Origin: an uncultured Chloroflexia bacterium
GTDB taxonomy: Bacteria > Chloroflexota > Limnocylindria > QHBO01
NCBI GenBank assembly: GCA_963807915.1
Contig: CAWEDO010000001.1
Span: forward strand, 439,453 to 503,452
Length of the DNA: 64,000 bases
Direction of reading: 5' to 3'
Both the position numbers and the translations under genes were made by a program. This document shows positions 885 through 10,467 of this stretch, piece by piece. The notes beneath the pieces are model-generated. The model was given only the letters and a program-made list of their open reading frames with translations, ran no database searches and had not been told where the DNA came from. Position 1 is the stretch's first letter, and each line of letters begins with the position of its first letter.

Positions 885-2143
885 GCGGGCGCTTCTGCCG
901 CTTCGGGTGCCTCCACCCAGCGCACCTCTCTCACCGCTCGCACGAGCAGCACGCCGTAATTGGCGAGCAGTCCGAGTACGGCTGCCCCCACCAGCGTCAC
1001 GGTCAGCCCATAGGTTGCCGCAAGGGGTCCCGCCAACAGGAAGCCCAGCGGCTGGAAGATGAGCGACACGAGCCAGTCATAGCTGCTCACCCGCGATCTG
1101 GCATGGTCCGGCACGTGCTGCTGGAGCATCGTGTACCACCACGTATTGGCGAGTTCGATTGCGATCAGCGACAGCATCGAGGCGCCCGCGATCAGGAGGA
1201 CGGGCAGTGGACCTACTAGCGCCAACGCTGGCAGCGATGTTGCCGCCATGATCATGAAACCGGTCATCAGCGGTCGTCGCGGGCGAAGGCGCAGGGCCAG
1301 GACACCGCCGATGACACCGCCGATCCCCCCGCCGGTCAGGATCAGGCCCCAGGCCGCGGCCCCCCCGAGGTGCTGCTCCGCCACGACCGGCCCAAGGATG
1401 ATGAACGGCGCCCCGGCTACGTTGCTCACCGCAAACGTGCAGATGGCGGCGACGATCCACGGGCGAGCGGTCACTTCGCGCCAGCCACTGGCGAGCTCCG
1501 CGAAGAACGGTTGCGGTTCTGCGGATCTTGCCTCGCGCGGTACCGGGCGGAGCAGGAGCAGGGAGATCGCGCTGACCACGAACGTCACAGCGTCGATCAG
1601 GAAGACGATGCCGACGCTGTGGAAGAGCGCAATCAAGGCCCCGGCGAGGGGGGGACCGAAGATGCGGGTTCCGTTGCGCGACAGTCCGATGAGCGCATTC
1701 GCCTGCTGCAGTCGCCCGGCGCTGACGGTCTGCGGGATCAGGCCCAGGCTCGCCGGCCCGAAGAATGCTCCCGCCCCGCCGATCACCGCCGCACCTACGG
1801 CGATGTGCCACACCTGTGCCGTCCCACTGATCAGCAGCAAAGCCAGGATCACCTCGGCGACGCCACGCACGATGTCGCAGGCAACCATGACGAGCTGTCT
1901 CGGCAGTCGATCGGCCCACACGCCGCCGGCCAACACGAGGGCGACGTTCGAGACCGTGAAGGCCGCAAAGACGATTCCCAGATCGGCCGCCGAGCCACCG
2001 ACCTGCAGCACCGCGAACGCGACCGCCACGAAGATCAGCGCGTCGCCAGCAGCGGACGCGGTCTGGCCGATCCACAGCAGACGGAACTGTGGCTCCGTCA
2101 GCGCTCCCAGGCGCCCGACGGGCGTGTTCGGCTCTGCCGTCAT
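881..2143 (-). CDS. MFS transporter (DHA3 / enterobactin-exporter-like)
   Basis: The real start is the internal Met (MTAEPNTPVGRLGALTEPQFRLLWIGQTASAAGD...) of the over-long ORF 881..2527. It has about 12 TM segments and MFS motifs (GxLaDRlGRR-like). The start overlaps the GNAT stop by 4 nt. Confidence 0.8.
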   Translation of the reverse strand: MTAEPNTPVGRLGALTEPQFRLLWIGQTASAAGDALIFVAVAFAVLQVGGSAADLGIVFAAFTVSNVALVLAGGVWADRLPRQLVMVACDIVRGVAEVILALLLISGTAQVWHIAVGAAVIGGAGAFFGPASLGLIPQTVSAGRLQQANALIGLSRNGTRIFGPPLAGALIALFHSVGIVFLIDAVTFVVSAISLLLLRPVPREARSAEPQPFFAELASGWREVTARPWIVAAICTFAVSNVAGAPFIILGPVVAEQHLGGAAAWGLILTGGGIGGVIGGVLALRLRPRRPLMTGFMIMAATSLPALALVGPLPVLLIAGASMLSLIAIELANTWWYTMLQQHVPDHARSRVSSYDWLVSLIFQPLGFLLAGPLAATYGLTVTLVGAAVLGLLANYGVLLVRAVREVRWVEAPEAAEAPA

Positions 2144-2676
2144 TGCTGGCGCGCCTCCCACTCGGTCCGGCCGATGCCGTAGACCAGCACGCGATGACCC
2201 CGCAGCTCGGTCTCGCCCCGATGCGTCTCGCCAAGTCGCGTGGCAACGGCGATGGAAGCGGTGTTGTCCGGGTCGATCAGGCTGATCAGGTCGTCGAATC
2301 CGATCTCCTCGAAGCCCCAGCCCATGGCGGCGCCTGCGGCCTCGGTCGCGTAGCCCCGGCCCCACCACGTGCGCCCGAGCAGATAGCCGACCTCGGGGCC
2401 CGGCCATTCCGCAGGGTTGCTGATTCCCGCGCGGCCGATGACACGGCCGCTGCCACGGTCCTCGATCGCCCACTGCCCGTAGCCGCGCATCGCCCAGTGA
2501 CCGAGCCAGCCGGCGACCGCACGCCACGTGTCCTCGTGGCTTGGCAGCTGTCGGTCACCCACGTAGCGCATGACATCGGGGTCCTGCGAGAGCTCGAAGA
2601 ACGCGCCCACATCGGCCTCCCGGAAGGACCGGAGGGTGAGTCGCTCGGTCTCGATCGTCGGGATCGCCAGCTGCAT
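2140..2676 (-). CDS. GNAT family N-acetyltransferase (RimJ/RimL-like)
   Basis: MQLAIPTIETERLTLRSFREADVGAFFELSQDPDVMRYV... plus an acetyl-CoA-binding region. ATGA overlap with the downstream MFS gene suggests translational coupling. Confidence 0.75.
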   Translation of the reverse strand: MQLAIPTIETERLTLRSFREADVGAFFELSQDPDVMRYVGDRQLPSHEDTWRAVAGWLGHWAMRGYGQWAIEDRGSGRVIGRAGISNPAEWPGPEVGYLLGRTWWGRGYATEAAGAAMGWGFEEIGFDDLISLIDPDNTASIAVATRLGETHRGETELRGHRVLVYGIGRTEWEARQQ

Positions 2677-2714
2677 CCGGGGATGATGCCGCAGGCGCCT
2701 CCGCACGCGCCGTT

Positions 2715-3974
2715 ATGATCCGCGCGATGTCGCCGCCCCCCACGCCCGAGATTGAGCGCCACCGTTCCCGGGCGCTTGCGACCTACTTCACGGCGGTGGC
2801 GCTGACGAGCATCGCCTACATCGCCACCTTCACGGTTGCCTCGATCGCGGCCCCCGGCATGACCGGGTCCGCCGGCTCGAGTGGGTGGCCGAGCGCGATC
2901 GCCGTCGCGGGAACGGCCCTCGCGGCCTCGCTCCTCTCGTCGGTCATGGCCACCCGCGGCCGTCGGGCGGGGATCGTCCTCGGCCTCGGTGTCGCGGTGG
3001 TCGGCGGCGCCCTCGCGGTCGTCGCGGTGATGGCCGAGTCCCTGATCCTCCTCCTCGTCTCCTCCGCACTCGTCGGGTTCGGCAACGCGGCCCTGAACCT
3101 GAGCCGATACGCCGCCGCCGACCTCTACCCGGCGGACCGTCGCGCGGGCGCGCTGGGGTTCGTGGTGTGGGGCAGCACCATCGGCGCAGTGGTCGGTCCG
3201 AACCTGGTCGCGCCTGCTGGCGCCATCGCACCCAACATCGGCCTCCTGCCGCTGGCTGGCGGCTTCGCGATGGCGTTCGCCTTCCTGCTCGCCGCGCTGG
3301 CGGTGGCGGCGCTTGGCCCGCGTGCCCCGGTCCAGCCCCACCTCGATGAGCCGGCTCGGGCAGTCGGATCGGTTCGAGCCTCCCAGCGCGGGCTCCTGCT
3401 CGAGCTGATGCGGAAGCCGCAGGGTCGCACCGCCCTCGTCGCCCTGGTGACGAGCCAGCTGGTCATGACGCTGGTGATGACCATGACGCCGTACCACCTG
3501 CATGCCGAGGGCCATGGCCTGGAGACGGTCGGGCTGGTCATCAGCGCGCACACCCTGGGCATGTTCGCCTTCTCGCCGCTGTCGGGCCGCCTGACCGATC
3601 GATTCGGCGCGAACGCCATGATCCTTGCGGGGTTCACCGTGCTTGCGGTCTCAGGCATCCTCGCCGCCGTCATCCCGGACAGCGGCGTCGGCCTCGCGAT
3701 CCCGATGTTCCTGCTGGGCGTCGGCTGGAACCTCGGCTTCGTGGCCGGCAGCTCGCTCCTCGCCTCGGAGGCGCCGCTCGGCGACCGAGCGCGGCTGCAG
3801 GGCGCCAGCGATGCCCTGGTCTGGGCGACGGCCGCGGCGGCCAGCTTCAGCTCGGGCTACGTCGTCGCGACGGCGAGCTTCGCCTTCCTGGCCGCGATGG
3901 GGGCTGGCGTTGCGATCGTCCTCGGATTCGTGGTGATCCGCAACATGCGCGTGGTTGGAGCGGCCACGGCCTAA
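2715..3974 (+). CDS. MFS transporter
   Basis: 419-aa polytopic membrane protein, Gly/Ala-rich TM helices, MFS fold. Clean ATG start. Stop overlaps the convergent DLH gene. Confidence 0.75.
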   Translation: MIRAMSPPPTPEIERHRSRALATYFTAVALTSIAYIATFTVASIAAPGMTGSAGSSGWPSAIAVAGTALAASLLSSVMATRGRRAGIVLGLGVAVVGGALAVVAVMAESLILLLVSSALVGFGNAALNLSRYAAADLYPADRRAGALGFVVWGSTIGAVVGPNLVAPAGAIAPNIGLLPLAGGFAMAFAFLLAALAVAALGPRAPVQPHLDEPARAVGSVRASQRGLLLELMRKPQGRTALVALVTSQLVMTLVMTMTPYHLHAEGHGLETVGLVISAHTLGMFAFSPLSGRLTDRFGANAMILAGFTVLAVSGILAAVIPDSGVGLAIPMFLLGVGWNLGFVAGSSLLASEAPLGDRARLQGASDALVWATAAAASFSSGYVVATASFAFLAAMGAGVAIVLGFVVIRNMRVVGAATA

Positions 3975-4648
3975 GTCAGGTTCTCGCGCAGGAAGGCGAC
4001 TGTGCGCGCGTAGACGAGCTCCGCGGCCTCGGCGTCGAACTCCGGCCGGTCCGGCTCCGTGAACCAGTGCTTCATGCCCGGGTAGACATGCGCGGTGCTG
4101 CCGTCGGGGAGCGGCTTCGCCCCGGCCGCCTCGGGAGATTCGACGAACTGGTCGTTCTCGGCGAAGTGGCCGAGGTAGGCCGCTCCGCCGGGACCCTCGT
4201 AGACGTCGCTGTAGATCGAGACGAAGGCAGCGACGTCCGAGCGCTCCGACGCCACGCTGCTGCCGTACCACCCGCCAAAGCTCAGCGCGACGATGCCGGC
4301 TCGGTCGCCACGCGCGTCCGGGTGTGCGAGCAGTGCGTCAAGGGAGGCCTTGACCCGTTCCATGATCCGGTCCGGATTCAGGCCGCCCGGCCCGCCACCT
4401 CCCTGCTCGATCGCCGTCGTGAACGCCTCCGCGTCCTGGATGGTGGTCAGCACGGTGCCGTCGAAGAGGTCTGGCGCCATGACCGTGAAGCCGTCGCCGG
4501 CGAGTCGGTCGGCCAGGTTGCGCAGGTCCGTATTCAGGCCCCACCAGCTGTGGAGCAGCAGGACGGGAGCGCCGGGCGACGGTGTCGCCGTGGCGAGGTA
4601 GATATCCGCGCCCCCGGCTCCATCCTCGATGCGAATCGTCTCTCCCAT
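3971..4648 (-). CDS. Dienelactone hydrolase family alpha/beta hydrolase (tandem paralog 1)
   Basis: Internal start MGETIRIEDGAGGADIYLAT... inside ORF 3971..4993. Contains HSWWG, the nucleophile motif LSFGG and HWF near the C-terminus. About 60% identical to the adjacent gene. Confidence 0.75.
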   Translation of the reverse strand: MGETIRIEDGAGGADIYLATATPSPGAPVLLLHSWWGLNTDLRNLADRLAGDGFTVMAPDLFDGTVLTTIQDAEAFTTAIEQGGGGPGGLNPDRIMERVKASLDALLAHPDARGDRAGIVALSFGGWYGSSVASERSDVAAFVSIYSDVYEGPGGAAYLGHFAENDQFVESPEAAGAKPLPDGSTAHVYPGMKHWFTEPDRPEFDAEAAELVYARTVAFLRENLT

Positions 4649-4652
4649 GCCG

Positions 4653-5312
4653 CTAACCGAGGTGTTCGCGCAGGAAGTCCACCGTGCGCTGGTAGGCCAG
4701 CTCGCTGGCGTCGCGGTCGAACTCCGGCCGGTCGTCCTCGATGAACCAGTGCTTGGTGCCGGGGTAGACGTACGCGGCGCTTCCCTCACCGAGCGTCTTC
4801 TCGAAGTCGGGCACTGCGGCCGAGTCGTCGAATTCATCGTCCTCGGCAAAATGGCCGAGGTAGGCGATGCCATCGGGCGCCTCGAAGATGCCGCTGTAGT
4901 ACATGACGACGGCGCCGATGTCGGACCGCTCGCCGGCGACTTCGGTGCCTTCCATCGCGCCAAAGCTGAGCCCGATGATTCCGGCGCGGTCACCGCGAGC
5001 GTCCGGGTGGGCCAGGAGCTGGTCGAGCGCCGCCAGGACGCCCGCTCGGATGCGCCCGCCGTCCGCCTCGGTGAGTGACCTGACGTTCGCCAGCGCTTCG
5101 TCCGGCGTCGTCAGGATCTTTCCCTGGAACATGTCCGGGGCCATGACCGTGAAGCCGTCGCCGGCAAGGCGGTCGGCCAGGTCACGGATCGTCTGATTCA
5201 GTCCCCACCAGGGATGGAGCAGGAGGACCGGTGGTCCAGGAGCTGGCCTGGCAGGTGCGAGGTACGCGTCGGAGTCGCCAAGTGCTGACTTGATGCGGAT
5301 CGTTTCTCCCAT
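4653..5312 (-). CDS. Dienelactone hydrolase family alpha/beta hydrolase (tandem paralog 2)
   Basis: MGETIRIKSALGDSDAYLAP...LSFGAM...HWF. Full-length paralog lying 4 nt upstream of paralog 1. Confidence 0.8.
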   Translation of the reverse strand: MGETIRIKSALGDSDAYLAPARPAPGPPVLLLHPWWGLNQTIRDLADRLAGDGFTVMAPDMFQGKILTTPDEALANVRSLTEADGGRIRAGVLAALDQLLAHPDARGDRAGIIGLSFGAMEGTEVAGERSDIGAVVMYYSGIFEAPDGIAYLGHFAEDDEFDDSAAVPDFEKTLGEGSAAYVYPGTKHWFIEDDRPEFDRDASELAYQRTVDFLREHLG

Positions 5313-5372
5313 CGTCCAACCTTAGCAGCGTCTACATGACAGGTCCTGACAGGTTCCAGGGACTTCCACTAG

Positions 5373-5388
5373 TAGAACATACGTTCTA
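5373..5388. promoter_or_regulatory. LexA (SOS) operator, Cheo-box type: palindrome TAGAACATACGTTCTA, 15 nt upstream of the dnaE2 start
   Basis: Perfect 14-bp palindrome AGAAC-ATAC-GTTCT fits the Gram-positive/Chloroflexi LexA consensus GAAC-N4-GTTC. It sits in the 90-bp gap directly upstream of the error-prone polymerase gene. Confidence 0.6.
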
Positions 5389-5402
5389 TCATTCGTCGTC
5401 CA

Positions 5403-8400
5403 ATGGACACGCCGGACGACTACTGCGAGCTCCACGCGCACTCCAACTTCAGCTTCCTGGACGGGGCCAGCCATCCCGAGGAGCTGATCGCGCGGGCCGC
5501 GGTGCTGGGCATGCCGGCGCTGGCCGTCACCGATCACGCGGGCCTGTACGGCGCGGTCCGCCTGTCGAAGGCGGCCGCCCAGACCCGGACCGATGAAGCC
5601 CGGGACGCCGGCCTCTCGCCGGTCACTGCCATCATCGGCATCGAGCTGACCATCCCCCGCGATGAGGGCGAGCTGCGCCTGGCCCGACGCGGACGGAAGC
5701 TCAACGACCCGTTCCGCGGCGAGCATGCGAGCCGAGGCTGGCCGGGGGAGCTGCATGCCGGCCCGATCCCCGGCGATCACCTCGTCCTGCTGGCCCGCGA
5801 CGCCGCCGGCTACACCGCCCTGTCGCGCCTGGCCAGCCGTGGCCACCTCGCCGGCGAGAAGCAGTTCCCGATCTTCGCGCGGGAGCTGGTCGAGGCGGGG
5901 ATCGACGAGGGGCGTGGCCACCTGATCGGTCTCTCCGGTTGCCGCAACGGGGAGGTGCCACGCCACCTGCTCGCCGGGGAGCGGGACGCCGCCAACGAGG
6001 CAGCGAAGCGCTGGGCGAGCTACTTTCCGGAGGGTGACTTCGGGGTGGAGCTGTCGCACCACCTTGAGCCCGATGACGACTGGCTCGTGGCGCAGCTCGC
6101 CGAGCTGGCGGAGGCGGCCGGGCTGCCGACGGTGGTCACCAACCAGGTGCACTACGCGACGGCCGGAGGCCATCGGCTCCAGGACGTGCTGGTCTGCATC
6201 CGCCACGGTGCCACCCTGGACGAGGCGCGCGAACTGCTCCTCCCCAACGGCGAATACCGGCTGAAGGGCGCGGACGAGCTGGTCACCATCGGCGCGGGGC
6301 TGCCGGACGCACACGCCCGGCGGGCGTGGGCCAGCGGCATGGCGCAGGCAGCCGCCATCGGCCAGTCCTGCGAACTCGACCTGAACTTCGAGCGCTATCG
6401 GTTCCCGGGCTTCACGGTCCCCGAGGGAGAGACGCCGTTCTCATATCTCTACCAGCGTGCACACGAGGGCTTACGGGTCCGTTATCGGCCCATTACCAGG
6501 CAGTCGGTGAAGCAGCTGGCCCACGAGCTGGAGATCATCGAGCGCACCAACCTGGCCGAGTTCTTCCTGATCGTGTGGGACCTGATGGAGTTCGCGCGGA
6601 CGAACGGGATCATCGGCCAGGGGCGGGGGAGTGCCGGCGACTCGATCGTGGCCTATTGCCTTGGCATCACCAAGGTCGACCCGATCGCCCACAAGCTCCT
6701 CTTCGAGCGCTTCATCAACGAGGCGCGGACGCTGCCGGACATCGACATCGACTTCGACGTCAACCGGCGCGAGGAGGTGATCCAGTACCTCTACAACCGC
6801 TACGGCGAGGACCACTCGGCCATGGTCTGCACGGTGATCACCTACCGCGCTCGGTCGGCGGTGCGCGAGGTGGCCAAGGCGCTCGGCTTCCCGCTCGAGG
6901 CGGTGGACCGCGTGGCCAAGGCGCTGGACACGCGCGACGCCTCGGACGTCGCCCGCGACCTGGCGCTGGACGGCGGCTTCGGCTGGCTCTTCGAGGAGGC
7001 CGGCCTGGACATGGCCGCGGAGGCGATCCCGCCGGGTCGGGATGGCCGGGGCCAGACCGATGCCGCGCCGGGCGCCGTCACGCGTCAGCCCTCCCACTCA
7101 CCGTGGCACGGCTCCGCGCGACCCTCGCTGGCACTCCCATTGCGCCCTGACCTGGCCGATGCCGAGGCGCGTGCCCGTGACGCCGCCGGTGACCACGACG
7201 GGCGGCCGTACAGCGAGAGCGGCTGGGTGCCGCCGAAGCGACCGAGCGTGCTCGACCAGTCGGTGGTATCGGTCAAGCACGAGGGCTGGCAGCAGAAGCG
7301 CTACGGCCCCGGCGGCCTGAAGCTGCCCGAGCCGCGCGATAACGGCACGCCCGGACCCTCGAGCGATCGGCCCGCCGTGGTGCGGGTGGACCCGGAGAGC
7401 GGGATGCCGATCGAGGAGCGTCGCCGGCCAAGTGTCCTGCCCGCGATGCATCAGGTGAATGAAACCGCACCGGAGACGGGCTTCCCGCAACGCCCCATGC
7501 GCGGGGTGACTGAGACAACACCGGAAGGGGCCGATCCGCGCGATTTGATGCACCCGATGAATGAGTCCTCCGCGCACGCCGCTCCAAGGAACCGCTGGCA
7601 GTGGCTCCTCCAGCTCTGCGGCGAGATCGACGGCTTCCCGCGCCACCTGGGAATCCACGTCGGCGGGATGCTCGTCACCCGCACCCCGCTGATCGACCTC
7701 GTCCCGATCGAGCGCGCCACGATGCCGGGAAGAGTGGTGACCCAGTACGACAAGGAGGACATCGAGGCGCTGGGCCTGGTGAAAATCGACCTCCTCTCCC
7801 TGCGCACGCTGGGCGTGGTCAGCGAGTGCCTCGACAAGATCGAGCGCGACACGGGGACCAGGATCGACCTGGACGCACTTCCCCACGACGACCCGGAGGT
7901 CTTCAAGACGATCCGCGCCGCCGACACGGTCGGCATGTTCCAGATCGAGAGCCGCGCCCAGATGCAGGCACTCCCCAAGTCAAGGCCCGAGCGCTTCGAG
8001 GACCTGGTGGTCCAGGTCGCGATCATTCGTCCCGGCCCGATCCAGGGCAACGCGGTCCACCCCTACCTGCGCCGCCGCGCCGGAACCGAGCCGGTCACCT
8101 ACCTCCATCCAAGCCTCGAACCGATCCTCAGCGACACCCTGGGCGTGATCCTCTACCAGGAGCAGGTGATGCAGATCGCGATCGAGGTGTGCGGCTACAC
8201 CGCCCTCGAGGCGGACATCTTCCGCAAGGCGATGGGGTCCCATCGGTCCCACCAGAAGATGCAGGCCGAGCGCGATCGGTTCGTAGGCGGTGCCATGCGC
8301 ACCGGCCTCAGCGAGGAGGACGGCGAGGACCTCTTCAAGCGCTGCTCGGCCTTCGCCGAGTTCGGCTTCGCGCGGGCCCACGCGGCGGCCTTCGCCAAGA

Positions 8401-9344
8401 TCACCTACGACACCGCCTGGTTGAAGCAGCGCTACCCCGCCTACTACTACGCCGGCGTCCTCAACAACCAGCCGATGGGCTTCTACTCGCCGGCCGTGAT
8501 CGTGGGCGACGCCAAGCGGCACGGCGTGAACGTGCTGCCGGTCGACGTCAACCAATCGCGCTGGGAGCACGAGGTCGAGCCGCTGCCGGACGGCAGAACG
8601 GCGCTGCGGCTGGGGATGCGGCAGGTCAAGGGGATCGACGAGAAGGCGCGCGAGACGCTCGAGGGCGAGCGCGCCACCGGTCCGTACACAGGCGTGCGCG
8701 ACTTCGTGGCGCGCACGGGTCAGGGCGAGCAGGTGGTGGAGCGGCTGATCGCGATCGGGGCGTTCGACTGGACCGATGTGCCCCGCCGCGAGCTCCTCTG
8801 GCAGCTGCGCAGCACCCTGGCCGATGCCAACCCCGCGCGTCCCGCGCTGGGCCTCACCGACGACGCGCAGCGCGAGCTCGGGGCGACGCTGCCGCCGATG
8901 ACCTTCGCCGAGCGGGTGGCGGCCGACTACCGGGAGCTGGGCCTCTCGCCAACCGCCCATGCCGCGGAGCTCTTCCGGGAGCGGCTCACCCAGCGGGGAG
9001 TGGTCCCCATCGCCGACGCCGGGAAGCGGCGCAACGGATCGCGGATTCGACTGGCGGGGCTGGCGGTCAGCATCCAGCACCCGATGACGGCCAAGAACTT
9101 CGTCTTCATCGCGCTGGAGGACGAGACCGGCATGATCAACGTCACGGTGCGGCCGCAGGTCTACACCGCGCACCGGGCGATCCTGCACCGCAACCCGCTG
9201 CTCGTGATCGACGGCATCCTCCAGGTCGAGGGCGAGGTTCTCAATGTGGTGGCGCGGGCCATCCACCCGGTTGCCGCGGTGATCGCCGAGGAGGCGAGGG
9301 AGACGCGGATCGAGCTGGCCAGGCAGCAGCGCATGTTCCGCTGA
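5403..9344 (+). CDS. dnaE2: Error-prone DNA polymerase DnaE2 (ImuC-type Pol III alpha paralog), carrying a ~185-aa low-complexity insertion
   Basis: N-terminal PHP domain (HAHSNFSFLDGAS..LAVTDH), Pol III alpha palm and fingers, and a C-terminal OB fold. It ends right after the OB fold with no tau-binding tail, and it has the LexA box upstream. 1313 aa against the usual ~1050-1100. Confidence 0.8.
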   Translation: MDTPDDYCELHAHSNFSFLDGASHPEELIARAAVLGMPALAVTDHAGLYGAVRLSKAAAQTRTDEARDAGLSPVTAIIGIELTIPRDEGELRLARRGRKLNDPFRGEHASRGWPGELHAGPIPGDHLVLLARDAAGYTALSRLASRGHLAGEKQFPIFARELVEAGIDEGRGHLIGLSGCRNGEVPRHLLAGERDAANEAAKRWASYFPEGDFGVELSHHLEPDDDWLVAQLAELAEAAGLPTVVTNQVHYATAGGHRLQDVLVCIRHGATLDEARELLLPNGEYRLKGADELVTIGAGLPDAHARRAWASGMAQAAAIGQSCELDLNFERYRFPGFTVPEGETPFSYLYQRAHEGLRVRYRPITRQSVKQLAHELEIIERTNLAEFFLIVWDLMEFARTNGIIGQGRGSAGDSIVAYCLGITKVDPIAHKLLFERFINEARTLPDIDIDFDVNRREEVIQYLYNRYGEDHSAMVCTVITYRARSAVREVAKALGFPLEAVDRVAKALDTRDASDVARDLALDGGFGWLFEEAGLDMAAEAIPPGRDGRGQTDAAPGAVTRQPSHSPWHGSARPSLALPLRPDLADAEARARDAAGDHDGRPYSESGWVPPKRPSVLDQSVVSVKHEGWQQKRYGPGGLKLPEPRDNGTPGPSSDRPAVVRVDPESGMPIEERRRPSVLPAMHQVNETAPETGFPQRPMRGVTETTPEGADPRDLMHPMNESSAHAAPRNRWQWLLQLCGEIDGFPRHLGIHVGGMLVTRTPLIDLVPIERATMPGRVVTQYDKEDIEALGLVKIDLLSLRTLGVVSECLDKIERDTGTRIDLDALPHDDPEVFKTIRAADTVGMFQIESRAQMQALPKSRPERFEDLVVQVAIIRPGPIQGNAVHPYLRRRAGTEPVTYLHPSLEPILSDTLGVILYQEQVMQIAIEVCGYTALEADIFRKAMGSHRSHQKMQAERDRFVGGAMRTGLSEEDGEDLFKRCSAFAEFGFARAHAAAFAKITYDTAWLKQRYPAYYYAGVLNNQPMGFYSPAVIVGDAKRHGVNVLPVDVNQSRWEHEVEPLPDGRTALRLGMRQVKGIDEKARETLEGERATGPYTGVRDFVARTGQGEQVVERLIAIGAFDWTDVPRRELLWQLRSTLADANPARPALGLTDDAQRELGATLPPMTFAERVAADYRELGLSPTAHAAELFRERLTQRGVVPIADAGKRRNGSRIRLAGLAVSIQHPMTAKNFVFIALEDETGMINVTVRPQVYTAHRAILHRNPLLVIDGILQVEGEVLNVVARAIHPVAAVIAEEARETRIELARQQRMFR

Positions 9345-9379
9345 TTGACCGCTCTGGTCGGGTTCCGTACGGTGACGTC

Positions 9380-10111
9380 GTGACCGTGGATCGCCCCGCT
9401 CGGTTCCTGCCCCTCGCGGCCGAGGACCTTGCCATCGCCGCATGGAACCTGGGCGGCGTACCACTGGCTGCCCTGAGCGGTGTCGGGCACGTCCTCGAGC
9501 TCGGTGACGCGCCCGATGCGCTTGCTGGCGTGATCCAGCTTCTCGCGGTGATCGGGGCGATCGTGGCCATCGCCACACGGCCTTCCGGAAGCACGATGCC
9601 TGCGGTGGAGCCGGGCTCCATTGACGCGCGGATGGCGTTCGTCGGCCCGCTCGCCCTGGCGATCGCCTTCGTCGCCGGATCTGCCTCGACCTACCTTGGA
9701 CTCGACGTTGAGGGACCGCTCGTTGGGACGGCGTTTCTGGCCATGGTGGCCGCCATGGCGTTCGCCAACCACCTCCCGACCTTAGACCAGGGGTTCAGGC
9801 GCGCAATGCTGCTGCCCTTCGTCCTCGTCTGCGCGGGCATCTTCGACGGGTTTGCCGCGCAACTTCTGGGCGACGTCAACCTGTCTGAGCTCATTGGCTC
9901 GCTCAGCGTCGACCAGACCGGCTTCGGGCTCTTCGTCGTCACCATGCTGCTCGCCGGCCTGGCGGTCTTCTACGCCGGCCTGGTGGTGGCGCCACGCGCC
10001 CTGGCATCGCCCGAGGAGCGGACCGGTTGCCTTGTCTGGCCCACCCGATTCGCCCTCTTCATCGTGAGTGCCGTGCTCGGCATCGGCTGGCTGACCGTCG
10101 TCTCGCCATGA
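9380..10111 (+). CDS. Hypothetical integral membrane protein (start uncertain)
   Basis: C-terminal ~245 aa of ORF 7601..10111, in a different frame from dnaE2. Six or more hydrophobic helices. GTG candidate at 9380, just after the dnaE2 stop. Its stop overlaps the next gene's ATG (ATGA). Confidence 0.45.
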   Translation: MTVDRPARFLPLAAEDLAIAAWNLGGVPLAALSGVGHVLELGDAPDALAGVIQLLAVIGAIVAIATRPSGSTMPAVEPGSIDARMAFVGPLALAIAFVAGSASTYLGLDVEGPLVGTAFLAMVAAMAFANHLPTLDQGFRRAMLLPFVLVCAGIFDGFAAQLLGDVNLSELIGSLSVDQTGFGLFVVTMLLAGLAVFYAGLVVAPRALASPEERTGCLVWPTRFALFIVSAVLGIGWLTVVSP

Positions 10112-10467
10112 CGCTCGTTGACGCGCTTCGCGCCTTCGCCTTCTCGCTGCCCCAAGCCTGGGAGGACCATCCCTGGGGCGAATCGGTCGCCAAGGTGGGG
10201 AAGAAGGTGTTCGTCTTCTTCGGCTCAATTGATGGCGACGGCCCTTTCGGCTTCAGCGTGAAGCTGCCGACCTCGAACGACGAGGCCCTCTCCATGCCTT
10301 TCACCGTGCCGACCGGCTACGGCCTGGCACGCGGCAACTGGGTAACGGTGCGACCTCCCGAGGATGTGCCGATCGACCTGCTGCTGGGCTGGATCGAGGA
10401 GAGCTACCGGACCGTCGCGCCCAATGCGCTGGCGGCTCAGCTGGAGGCCCATTCGGGAGACCGCTGA
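10108..10467 (+). CDS. MmcQ/YjbR family DNA-binding protein
   Basis: MTLVDALRAFAFSLPQAWEDHPWGESVAKVGKKVFVFFG...YGLARGNWVTV is the family signature. Translationally coupled to the preceding membrane protein. Confidence 0.7.
   Translation: MTLVDALRAFAFSLPQAWEDHPWGESVAKVGKKVFVFFGSIDGDGPFGFSVKLPTSNDEALSMPFTVPTGYGLARGNWVTVRPPEDVPIDLLLGWIEESYRTVAPNALAAQLEAHSGDR

Follow-up and report, generated by a model that had tools for sequence, protein, structure and literature searches.

A 64-kb stretch of DNA from an uncultured Chloroflexia bacterium, hereafter the window, carries a gene for a C-family DNA polymerase that is interrupted by a long Pro-rich segment and preceded by a palindrome of the type bound by LexA, the SOS repressor. 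The locus raises the question of whether this polymerase is the error-prone DnaE2 under SOS control, as had been claimed in an original prediction made from the letters of the window, and what the extra segment in it might be. The best explanation of the locus as a whole, and one that we consider moderately probable, is an SOS-controlled, catalytically intact DnaE2 with a clade-specific, motif-bearing insert in its thumb.

DnaE2 and its thumb insert

The dnaE2 coding sequence occupies positions 5403 to 9344 on the plus strand, as do all features given within it, and encodes 1313 aa plus a stop. The product scored 1072.2 bits with the error-prone polymerase model NF004225 of NCBIfam (cutoff, 939), while the DnaE1 equivalog NF004226 gave 789.5 bits on the same protein, below its cutoff of 1002. 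Pfam recognized a PHP domain (aa 9 to 220, positions 5427 to 6062; PF02811, E = 8.7 × 10−34), DNA_pol3_alpha at aa 348 to 513 with a second stretch from after about residue 731, the finger domain (aa 802 to 967), HHH_6 (aa 1041 to 1131), and a C-terminal OB fold (aa 1216 to 1289, positions 9048 to 9269; PF01336, E = 1.5 × 10−4), whose match is below the gathering score here and exceeds it in some dnaE2 orthologs. The protein ends 24 aa past the OB fold, at residue 1313, and no tau-binding domain was found with Pfam, giving the PHP-Pol3-(HhH)2-OB architecture that lacks a C-terminal tau-binding domain. The catalytic Asp pair, D446/D448 (positions 6738 to 6746), lies in PDIDIDF and was aligned with PDIDTDF of Taq Pol III alpha, and the third catalytic Asp, D796 (positions 7788 to 7790) in KIDLL, was aligned with K-M-D-F-L of that enzyme; these motifs are invariant in sets of 44 and 112 orthologs. 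Since the error-prone model lies above its cutoff, the DnaE1 model lies below, and the tau-binding domain is missing, the protein was assigned to DnaE2 and not to DnaE1. Open reading frame (ORF) 5403-9344 thus encodes a catalytically intact DnaE2, a C-family translesion polymerase, of a Limnocylindria-like Chloroflexota bacterium. The original prediction had named the same enzyme and had proposed conservation of the extra segment in DnaE1 as a refutation, which was not observed.

The best 120 homologues (72 to 100% identity) comprise one identical protein (P0001, 100%) and 119 orthologs of 72 to 94% identity, all of them 1275 to 1399 aa in length and originating from Chloroflexota, Candidatus Limnocylindria, and Dormibacteraeota-labelled metagenome-assembled genomes (MAGs). 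An invariant PALGL (aa 1147 to 1151, positions 8841 to 8855) lies a short way past the HhH domain, at the site where DnaE1 has its internal clamp-binding motif; it is QLVLGL-like, without the Gln.

All NCBIfam model matches to the protein are interrupted at about residues 510 to 540 and are picked up again at residues 729 to 735. In the alignment with Taq Pol III alpha, residues 365 to 509 and 725 to 900 of DnaE2 were paired with residues 379 to 526 and 548 to 720 of the Taq enzyme, respectively, leaving about 215 DnaE2 residues (approximately 510 to 724) opposite only 21 Taq residues (527 to 547). Residues 513 to 552 of the Taq protein form the thumb helix-loop-helix that contacts the duplex (Timinskas et al., PMC3919608), and because the site falls within this range, the insert replaces the loop of the thumb helix-loop-helix. 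Using hidden Markov model and PDB alignments together with a length comparison, we set its boundaries at aa 541 to 727 (187 aa, positions 7023 to 7583), and the flanks quoted in the original prediction proved correct.

Loop lengths were measured between the equivalents of residues 500 and 740, with a single-protein scan of genome contigs, which returned mostly unrelated DnaE1, serving as the length control. This loop spans 28 to 48 aa (median, 43) in 70 diverse DnaE homologues and 28 to 33 aa in two actinobacterial DnaE2 proteins, the latter being shorter even than in DnaE1 (median, 43), compared with 153 to 310 aa (median, 239) in 46 loci of the present clade. Related loci were gathered from GTDB genomes (2 loci), by exact-protein look-up (2 loci), and from metagenomes via an insert-specific profile (60 loci). 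The insert itself is about 100 to 260 aa in relatives, and its core block (aa 575 to 685) is common to every clade ortholog found. That related DnaE2 proteins lack the segment holds for the actinobacterial enzymes as well as for Thermomicrobium roseum, whose DnaE2 of 1059 aa has a short thumb loop and no insert. Given the uniform length and the taxonomic sources of the best 120 homologues, we regard the insert as a character of the clade. A more distant protein (L002, 50% identical) carries at the same site an insert of unrelated Pro/Ala/Arg-rich sequence without the motifs described below.

A profile built from the conserved block matched 24 of the 1.84 billion representative proteins searched, and those inspected were fragments or full-length copies of DnaE2, plus one spurious low-score match; an origin of the insert by borrowing from another protein was rejected on these grounds. 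A Pfam scan of the insert (E of 1 or less) gave no match, and the single match in a profile search of the PDB (E = 0.79) was judged to be due to chance. These data indicated that the insert module is exclusive to this DnaE2 clade.

Within the insert, a conserved motif block (aa 575 to 685, positions 7125 to 7457), which contains the helix LRPDLADAEARARDAAG, RPYSESGWVPPKRPSVLDQSVVSVKHEGWQQKRYG, LPEPRDNGTPGPSS, and VRVDPESGMPIEERRRPSVLP, is followed by a hypervariable tail (aa 686 to 727, positions 7458 to 7583), a lower-GC stretch with an identity of 0.14 and 36% gaps. Among 120 orthologs, block identity was 0.66 to 0.86 for the conserved block, reaching the core-like values of 0.75 to 0.86 for aa 571 to 660, versus 0.14 for aa 691 to 720, and the conserved block contains invariant P, W, G, E, R, and Y residues. 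Six motifs occur in fixed order: (V/I)PPGRDGR; SDSxW(H/N)..RP; an acidic amphipathic helix, LRPDLAxAEARARDAAGDHDG, in one subclade only; RP(Y/V)SE(S/G)GW(V/Y)PP(R/K)R(P/A)xVLDxSVxxV(K/R)xE....KRY; LPxPRD(N/T)GxPGP; and VR(V/L)DPESGMP(I/V)EERRRPxV(L/V)P. Indel-rich linkers separate them. The tail that follows is essentially unalignable, its length in relatives ranging from 0 to about 100 aa, and past it the core restarts at HAxPRNRWQWLL. Recent tandem duplications were seen in the variable linkers of some relatives (a block of about 30 aa in the insert tail of L122, GSAGL repeats in P0102, and DAT repeats in P0112), pointing to slippage-driven length change.

Codons were compared with those of two relatives, L081 and L082, and scored as the fractions showing synonymous-only and nonsynonymous differences. 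For aa 575 to 685 these fractions were 0.19 and 0.11 against L081 and 0.29 and 0.18 against L082, matching those of the polymerase core (0.17 to 0.19 and 0.06 to 0.07 against L081; 0.25 to 0.28 and 0.16 to 0.20 against L082), and for this reason we concluded that the conserved block is translated and under purifying selection. The tail (aa 686 to 727), by comparison, gave 0.07 and 0.38 against L081 and 0.07 and 0.74 against L082, revealing a lack of selection. Thus, short motifs held by purifying selection make up the insert, strung together by linkers that evolve rapidly and are prone to indels. Conservation imposed by an overlapping gene or an RNA element was rejected, as synonymous change in the block is as frequent as in the core; Rfam and tRNA scans of the window were empty.

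These results also refine the original description of the insert as a low-complexity, lower-GC segment. It is indeed Pro-rich (15%, versus 4 to 6% in the core) and falls among disordered sequences in a charge-hydropathy comparison; however, aa 575 to 685 are conserved like the catalytic domains, and no tandem repeats were found in the insert. Likewise, the drop in GC at positions 7440 to 7560 is real but modest (0.65 versus a gene mean of 0.70, with 20% of the gene's 120-nt windows equally low) and marks the fast-evolving tail only, for which GC content at third codon positions is the distinctive feature (0.71 in aa 686 to 727 versus 0.91 to 0.94 in the core). Structure prediction with AlphaFold2 (AF2) gave a predicted local distance difference test (pLDDT) score of 51.6 for the full-length protein minus the OB fold and 61.1 for a thumb fragment modelled with 112 sequences. 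In the better model, pLDDT was below 55 across most of the insert, rising to 70 to 86 at aa 578 to 607 (with a helix at 582 to 595) and to 75 to 76 at aa 658 to 677, a predicted pattern typical of conditionally folding segments.

Operator and promoter of dnaE2

The LexA-type operator, TAGAAC-ATAC-GTTCTA (TAGAACATACGTTCTA), lies at positions 5373 to 5388, with its GAAC-N4-GTTC core at 5375 to 5386. The palindrome first noticed there, AGAACATACGTTCT at 5374 to 5387, stands 15 nt (5388 to 5402) 5′ of the ATG at 5403, just as had been reported, and is extendable to this 16-mer. A putative −10 hexamer, TATCAT (5387 to 5392, plus strand), overlaps the right operator arm and ends 10 nt 5′ of the ATG, and 17 nt 5′ of it lies a weak putative −35 hexamer, TTCCAC (5364 to 5369, plus strand), proposed from a cTtc.c consensus at this site.

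Examination of the related loci revealed TAGAAC-N4-GTTCTA 5′ of dnaE2 in 41 of the 43 with enough upstream sequence, and a one-mismatch version in 2 more. Exactly 16 nt separate the last base of GTTC from the ATG in 33 of the 41 boxed loci, and the consensus of 36 unique dnaE2 promoters read cTtc.c.gaaTAGAACA..cGTTCTATcAT.ggtcGTCCgATG, in which the operator arms are invariant, the spacer is free, and information content is highest on the arms and TATCAT. The hexamer fused to the right arm in relatives is TATCAT, TATTAT, TATAAT, or TATACT. The upstream gene varies by locus, being a dienelactone hydrolase gene here and in L081, an MFS transporter gene in L082, and a regulator gene in L001, and the box remains constant. 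Across 532 kb of related loci, 50 boxes were counted where about 4 were expected from base composition, and nearly all of them adjoin the 5′ side of dnaE2 or imuA-like gene starts. In Firmicutes and Actinobacteria, LexA is established to recognise GAAC-N4-GTTC, and variants of this motif occur in Chloroflexi (PMC4951493). Thus, on comparative grounds, the palindrome is an SOS-type operator and a predicted LexA site, and the earlier suggestion to this effect is strengthened both by the 41 of 43 loci and by the same box before the imuA-like operon described below. Compared with the known box of this class, the Cheo box, it has the same core dyad, spacing, and location inside SOS mutagenesis promoters, and differs in the longer consensus of the clade, TAGAAC-N4-GTTCTA, and in its fusion to the −10 hexamer; T. 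roseum and mycobacteria have CGAAC/GTTCG flanks, unlike the TAGAAC/GTTCTA of this clade.

LexA bound at the operator would be expected to occlude the promoter, and DNA damage would then switch dnaE2 on. Because the −10 hexamer ends 10 nt 5′ of the ATG, leaving no room for a Shine-Dalgarno sequence, the dnaE2 mRNA would be nearly leaderless. The −10 hexamer is followed by a conserved GTCC(G/A)ATG (positions 5387 to 5405 of the window together with the hexamer; same site in L081 to L142), and the promoter of the imuA-like operon in L092 has the same −10/ATG layout. Overall, this promoter design suggests near-leaderless SOS transcripts in the clade. In one Chloroflexia MAG (L001, positions 6203 to 10139), the dnaE2 ortholog is split into several frames, by frameshift or assembly error, and the box and the downstream yjbR gene are intact despite the broken dnaE2.

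Accessory operon of relatives and flanking genes

A tblastn search of the window found no imuA or imuB, so the original statement that dnaE2 has no such neighbours is true within the window. Relatives, on the other hand, carry a corresponding operon upstream. In 10 related loci, a three-gene operon lies 2 to 13 kb 5′ of dnaE2 on the same strand, and it was present in 6 of the 8 loci having at least 8.3 kb of upstream sequence. Its first gene encodes a RecA-core paralog of about 230 to 290 aa (Pfam RecA, E = 4.7 × 10−21), which matches NCBIfam ImuA below the cutoff (E = 3.3 × 10−14) and has lost the Walker A lysine. The second encodes a Y-family protein (iPolY) of about 350 aa that is matched by Pol IV models only from about residues 85 to 119 onward, and from this we deduced that it is without the N-terminal catalytic part; its C terminus contains QLPAF and RFGEGRLWR, which by eye, unscored, resemble clamp-binding and RecA-NT motifs. 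The third is an 84-aa gene that overlaps the iPolY stop (L092, 3875 to 4129; L082, 5708 to 5962; L144, 11047 to 11301). The 84-aa protein is highly conserved, with the invariant pattern CN.WR...WWR...K...D...WH..R..D, and a word-based search returned stand-alone 84-aa proteins only as its homologues. Its comparison with the C terminus of a 416-aa protein of T. roseum by hhalign was weak (E = 0.02; probability, 2.3%), and 1 of 27 family members matched DUF6504 (E = 0.008); the 84-aa protein may represent ImuB-C detached from the rest of ImuB. In 7 of the 10 loci, the first gene of the operon is preceded by a TAGAAC-type GAAC-N4-GTTC box, and in the others the contig ends short of the promoter.

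Positions 1 to 887 of the window align at 81% with a luciferase-like gene of L144, and positions 912 to 3879 align with the MFS/acetyltransferase/MFS block that follows it. The gene order in L144 and L082 is imuA-like, iPolY, 84-aa gene, variable gene or genes, RibD_C, luciferase, and MFS (minus strand), with dnaE2 farther on, and in the syntenic relatives the operon lies two genes 5′ of the luciferase-like gene that opens the window. From this synteny, the operon is predicted about 0.8 to 3.2 kb left of the first base of the window, and its absence from the window is probably an edge effect. The arrangement would most likely be a loosely linked split cassette, as known for Actinobacteria, in which the imuA-like RecA paralog, the truncated and presumably inactive iPolY, and the 84-aa protein would act jointly with DnaE2.

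Compared with the DnaE2 (ImuC) of the LexA-regulated ImuA-ImuB-DnaE2 mutasome of Mycobacterium tuberculosis, Caulobacter, and Pseudomonas, the present protein belongs to the same subfamily and shares domain order, the Asp triad, the absence of a tau-binding tail, and control of the SOS-box type; in Actinobacteria, too, the accessory genes form a separate boxed operon (PMC3919608). It differs in that the loop of its thumb helix-loop-helix is longer by about 190 residues, and in that the accessory Y-family protein of the clade has only about 350 aa and is followed by a separate 84-aa gene. "Split ImuB" modules were described in 2026 (PMC12926913), and the relatives resemble them in having a truncated, presumably inactive PolY and a small protein beside a RecA-like gene, linked to dnaE2; in contrast to those modules, the RecA-like partner in this clade is not RecA itself but a short paralog of its own, whose Walker A motif is degenerate, and the thumb insert is not mentioned in that paper. 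The nearest cultured relative found was T. roseum DSM 5159, whose megaplasmid (NC_011961) encodes a DnaE2 with 45.6% identity over the C-terminal half. Its cassette (L143, 516647 to 522112) is contiguous, comprising recA-like, 416-aa hypothetical, and error-prone polymerase genes, and is boxed like the clade, by a CGAAC-N4-GTTCG box fused to TATGAT upstream of the cassette; its ImuB-like protein is one undivided polypeptide of 416 aa. The first two genes are annotated as "recombinase A" and "hypothetical protein," and they look ImuA-like and ImuB-like.

Downstream of dnaE2, the window contains a membrane-protein ORF (9380 to 10111, plus strand; start uncertain, GTG at 9380 or 9386 or ATG at 9596 or 9632), which had no family match, and an MmcQ/YjbR-family gene (10108 to 10467, plus strand), whose ATG overlaps the membrane-ORF stop (ATGA, 10108 to 10111). 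The proposed neighbours and their translational coupling are thus consistent with the overlap, the YjbR identity being weaker here (NCBIfam, E = 2.7 × 10−4) than in orthologs, which carry PF04237. The membrane ORF is not present in most relatives, where yjbR directly follows dnaE2, at a distance of 11 to 60 nt in L082, L092, L101, L105, L112, L117, L128 to L130, L135, and L138. yjbR is probably cotranscribed with dnaE2 under the same box, here with the membrane gene interposed. An extra small or membrane ORF between the two genes also occurs in a few relatives, and the dnaE2-yjbR pairing was not seen beside actinobacterial dnaE2. On the other side, a divergent dienelactone hydrolase gene (4653 to 5312, minus strand; PF01738, E = 2.3 × 10−27) shares a 90-nt intergenic region with dnaE2 and could also be affected by the operator within it; its position next to dnaE2 is not conserved among relatives. 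It is the nearer of two tandem dienelactone hydrolase paralogs immediately 5′ of dnaE2 on the minus strand, the other lying at 3971 to 4648.

Function of the insert and rival explanations

What, then, might the insert do? Our tentative proposal, which we rate as possible and somewhat short of probable, is that it serves as a docking arm for a partner or for DNA. The insert would be mostly disordered, fold conditionally, and extend as an arm from the tip of the thumb alongside the duplex as it leaves the enzyme. Its conserved motifs would either bind a partner, for which the beta clamp, RecA or the ImuA-like protein, and another mutasome component are candidates, or wrap over the primer-template. 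Such docking might tune the recruitment or the processivity of the error-prone enzyme. A precedent is the thioredoxin-binding loop in the thumb of T7 DNA polymerase, an insertion of tens of residues. Both are lineage-specific, flexible insertions at the thumb tip that adjoin the duplex product, and the thumb location is shared, as the DnaE2 insert maps between residues 527 and 548 of Taq Pol III alpha; T7 DNA polymerase, however, is an A-family enzyme, the two loops have no sequence similarity, and a partner or processivity role for the DnaE2 insert is drawn by functional analogy only. The more specific idea that the motif chain is a built-in arm that recruits a clade-specific partner or clamps the primer-template, and so represents a previously undescribed mode of control or processivity in C-family translesion synthesis, seems to us rather unlikely. 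Two narrower candidates were set aside: a clamp-binding motif inside the insert, for which loose resemblances only were seen (RPSVL twice, and LALPL in one subclade), none of them convincing, and a replacement of missing ImuB functions by the insert, rejected as the main idea because the short iPolY keeps QLPAF and RFGEGRLWR and is followed by the 84-aa gene.

Several observations weigh against the reading of the locus as an SOS-controlled DnaE2 with a functional thumb insert. The lone box is not significant by itself, with one GAAC-N4-GTTC in the 64 kb versus 0.48 expected and at least one in 39 of 100 shuffles of the window (for the 16-mer with up to two mismatches, 0.11 occurrences are expected in the window); a strict sigma-70 promoter scan of the region called no promoter; and neither the window nor the related loci collected yielded a lexA gene. 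As for the insert, we recognised none of the catalogued motifs in it, clamp-binding and RecA-NT included, and in published AlphaFold models of ImuA-ImuB-DnaE2 the contacts of DnaE2 are made through its PHP and (HhH)2 regions instead of the thumb (PMC12926913). Both of our AF2 models are of low confidence, so that a disordered and a poorly modelled insert are not firmly separated, and the unrelated sequence in L002 suggests that the insertion site is permissive and that part of the length may be neutral.

The weakness of the single occurrence and the missing lexA would fit an operator of some non-LexA regulator, or a palindrome arisen by chance. Against this stand the fixed distance in 41 of 43 loci irrespective of the upstream neighbour, the same box in front of the imuA-like operon, and the match to an experimentally established LexA class that includes Chloroflexi (PMC4951493); we therefore hold such an origin to be very improbable, and the operator is taken as real because of its conservation in relatives and not from window statistics. 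Its presence, together with the model scores and the missing tau-binding domain, also speaks against a replicative DnaE1. The size of the insert could recall an intein or another mobile element, and inteins are known in some dnaE genes; the insert, however, had no Hint or intein match in Pfam (E of 1 or less), its junctions (...AEA/IPPGR and ...HAAP/RNRW) are not of the Cys/Ser...His-Asn-Cys/Ser/Thr type, repeats or inverted repeats of the mobile type were not found, and it has been inherited vertically together with the gene. An intein or mobile element was excluded by the missing Hint match, the junction residues, and the lack of repeats, and we give the whole alternative, DnaE1 included, next to no credence.

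More weight attaches to two explanations that accept the insert as part of DnaE2, each of which we consider unlikely. The insert could be functionally neutral, a permissive surface loop having tolerated growth driven by GC and slippage, as would agree with its range of lengths, the indel-rich linkers and tandem duplications in relatives, the unrelated insert of L002 at the same site, the almost neutral evolution of the tail, and the reported correlation between genomic GC and variation in the core length of DnaE2, in PHP and thumb (rho = 0.58; PMC3919608). Such an expansion does not account for about 110 insert residues that are conserved like the catalytic core across orthologs of 72 to 100% identity, for motifs that are still recognisable in insert sequences just 45% identical, or for the invariant Trp, Pro, Gly, Glu, and Arg residues and the core-like synonymous/nonsynonymous ratios. 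Taken together, the comparisons indicate that the thumb loop is a permissive site that has been functionalised in this clade. Alternatively, the conserved part might be a small autonomous novel fold, for example a helix plus a beta-rich module, missed by AlphaFold from a shallow alignment. The two segments of pLDDT 70 to 86, the conserved aromatics (W568, W608, W629, Y603, and Y634), an alignment of close relatives only, and a poor model even of the polymerase core are compatible with such a fold; on the other side, Pro amounts to 15 to 16% and aliphatics to 15 to 20%, mean hydropathy is under the order/disorder boundary, linkers of variable length break up the motifs, the most conserved motif (aa 601 to 637) has a pLDDT of 43 to 53, and profile matches in Pfam and the PDB are lacking.

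SOS control of dnaE2, split cassettes, and heterogeneity in DnaE2 thumb length are already known, and the regulatory and family assignments of this locus are ordinary in themselves; a conserved, motif-bearing thumb insert was not described in the top full-text literature on the DnaE2 thumb, insertions, and Chloroflex- or mutasome-related terms. Surveys had noted an unexplained variation in thumb length, of which this clade is an extreme and well-sampled case, with a part that is clearly under selection. The locus and its relatives also document a fixed operator/−10/near-leaderless promoter design and a split imuA-like/iPolY/small-protein operon in an abundant uncultured lineage of soil and freshwater. 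SOS-controlled DnaE2 drives damage-induced mutagenesis, and how such polymerases are recruited and restrained is a question on which the insert may bear: it offers defined peptide motifs for partner tests (GW-PP-RRPSVLD, VDPESGMP, and VDPESGMPIEERRRP), with the insert-free cultured relative Thermomicrobium as a natural comparison.

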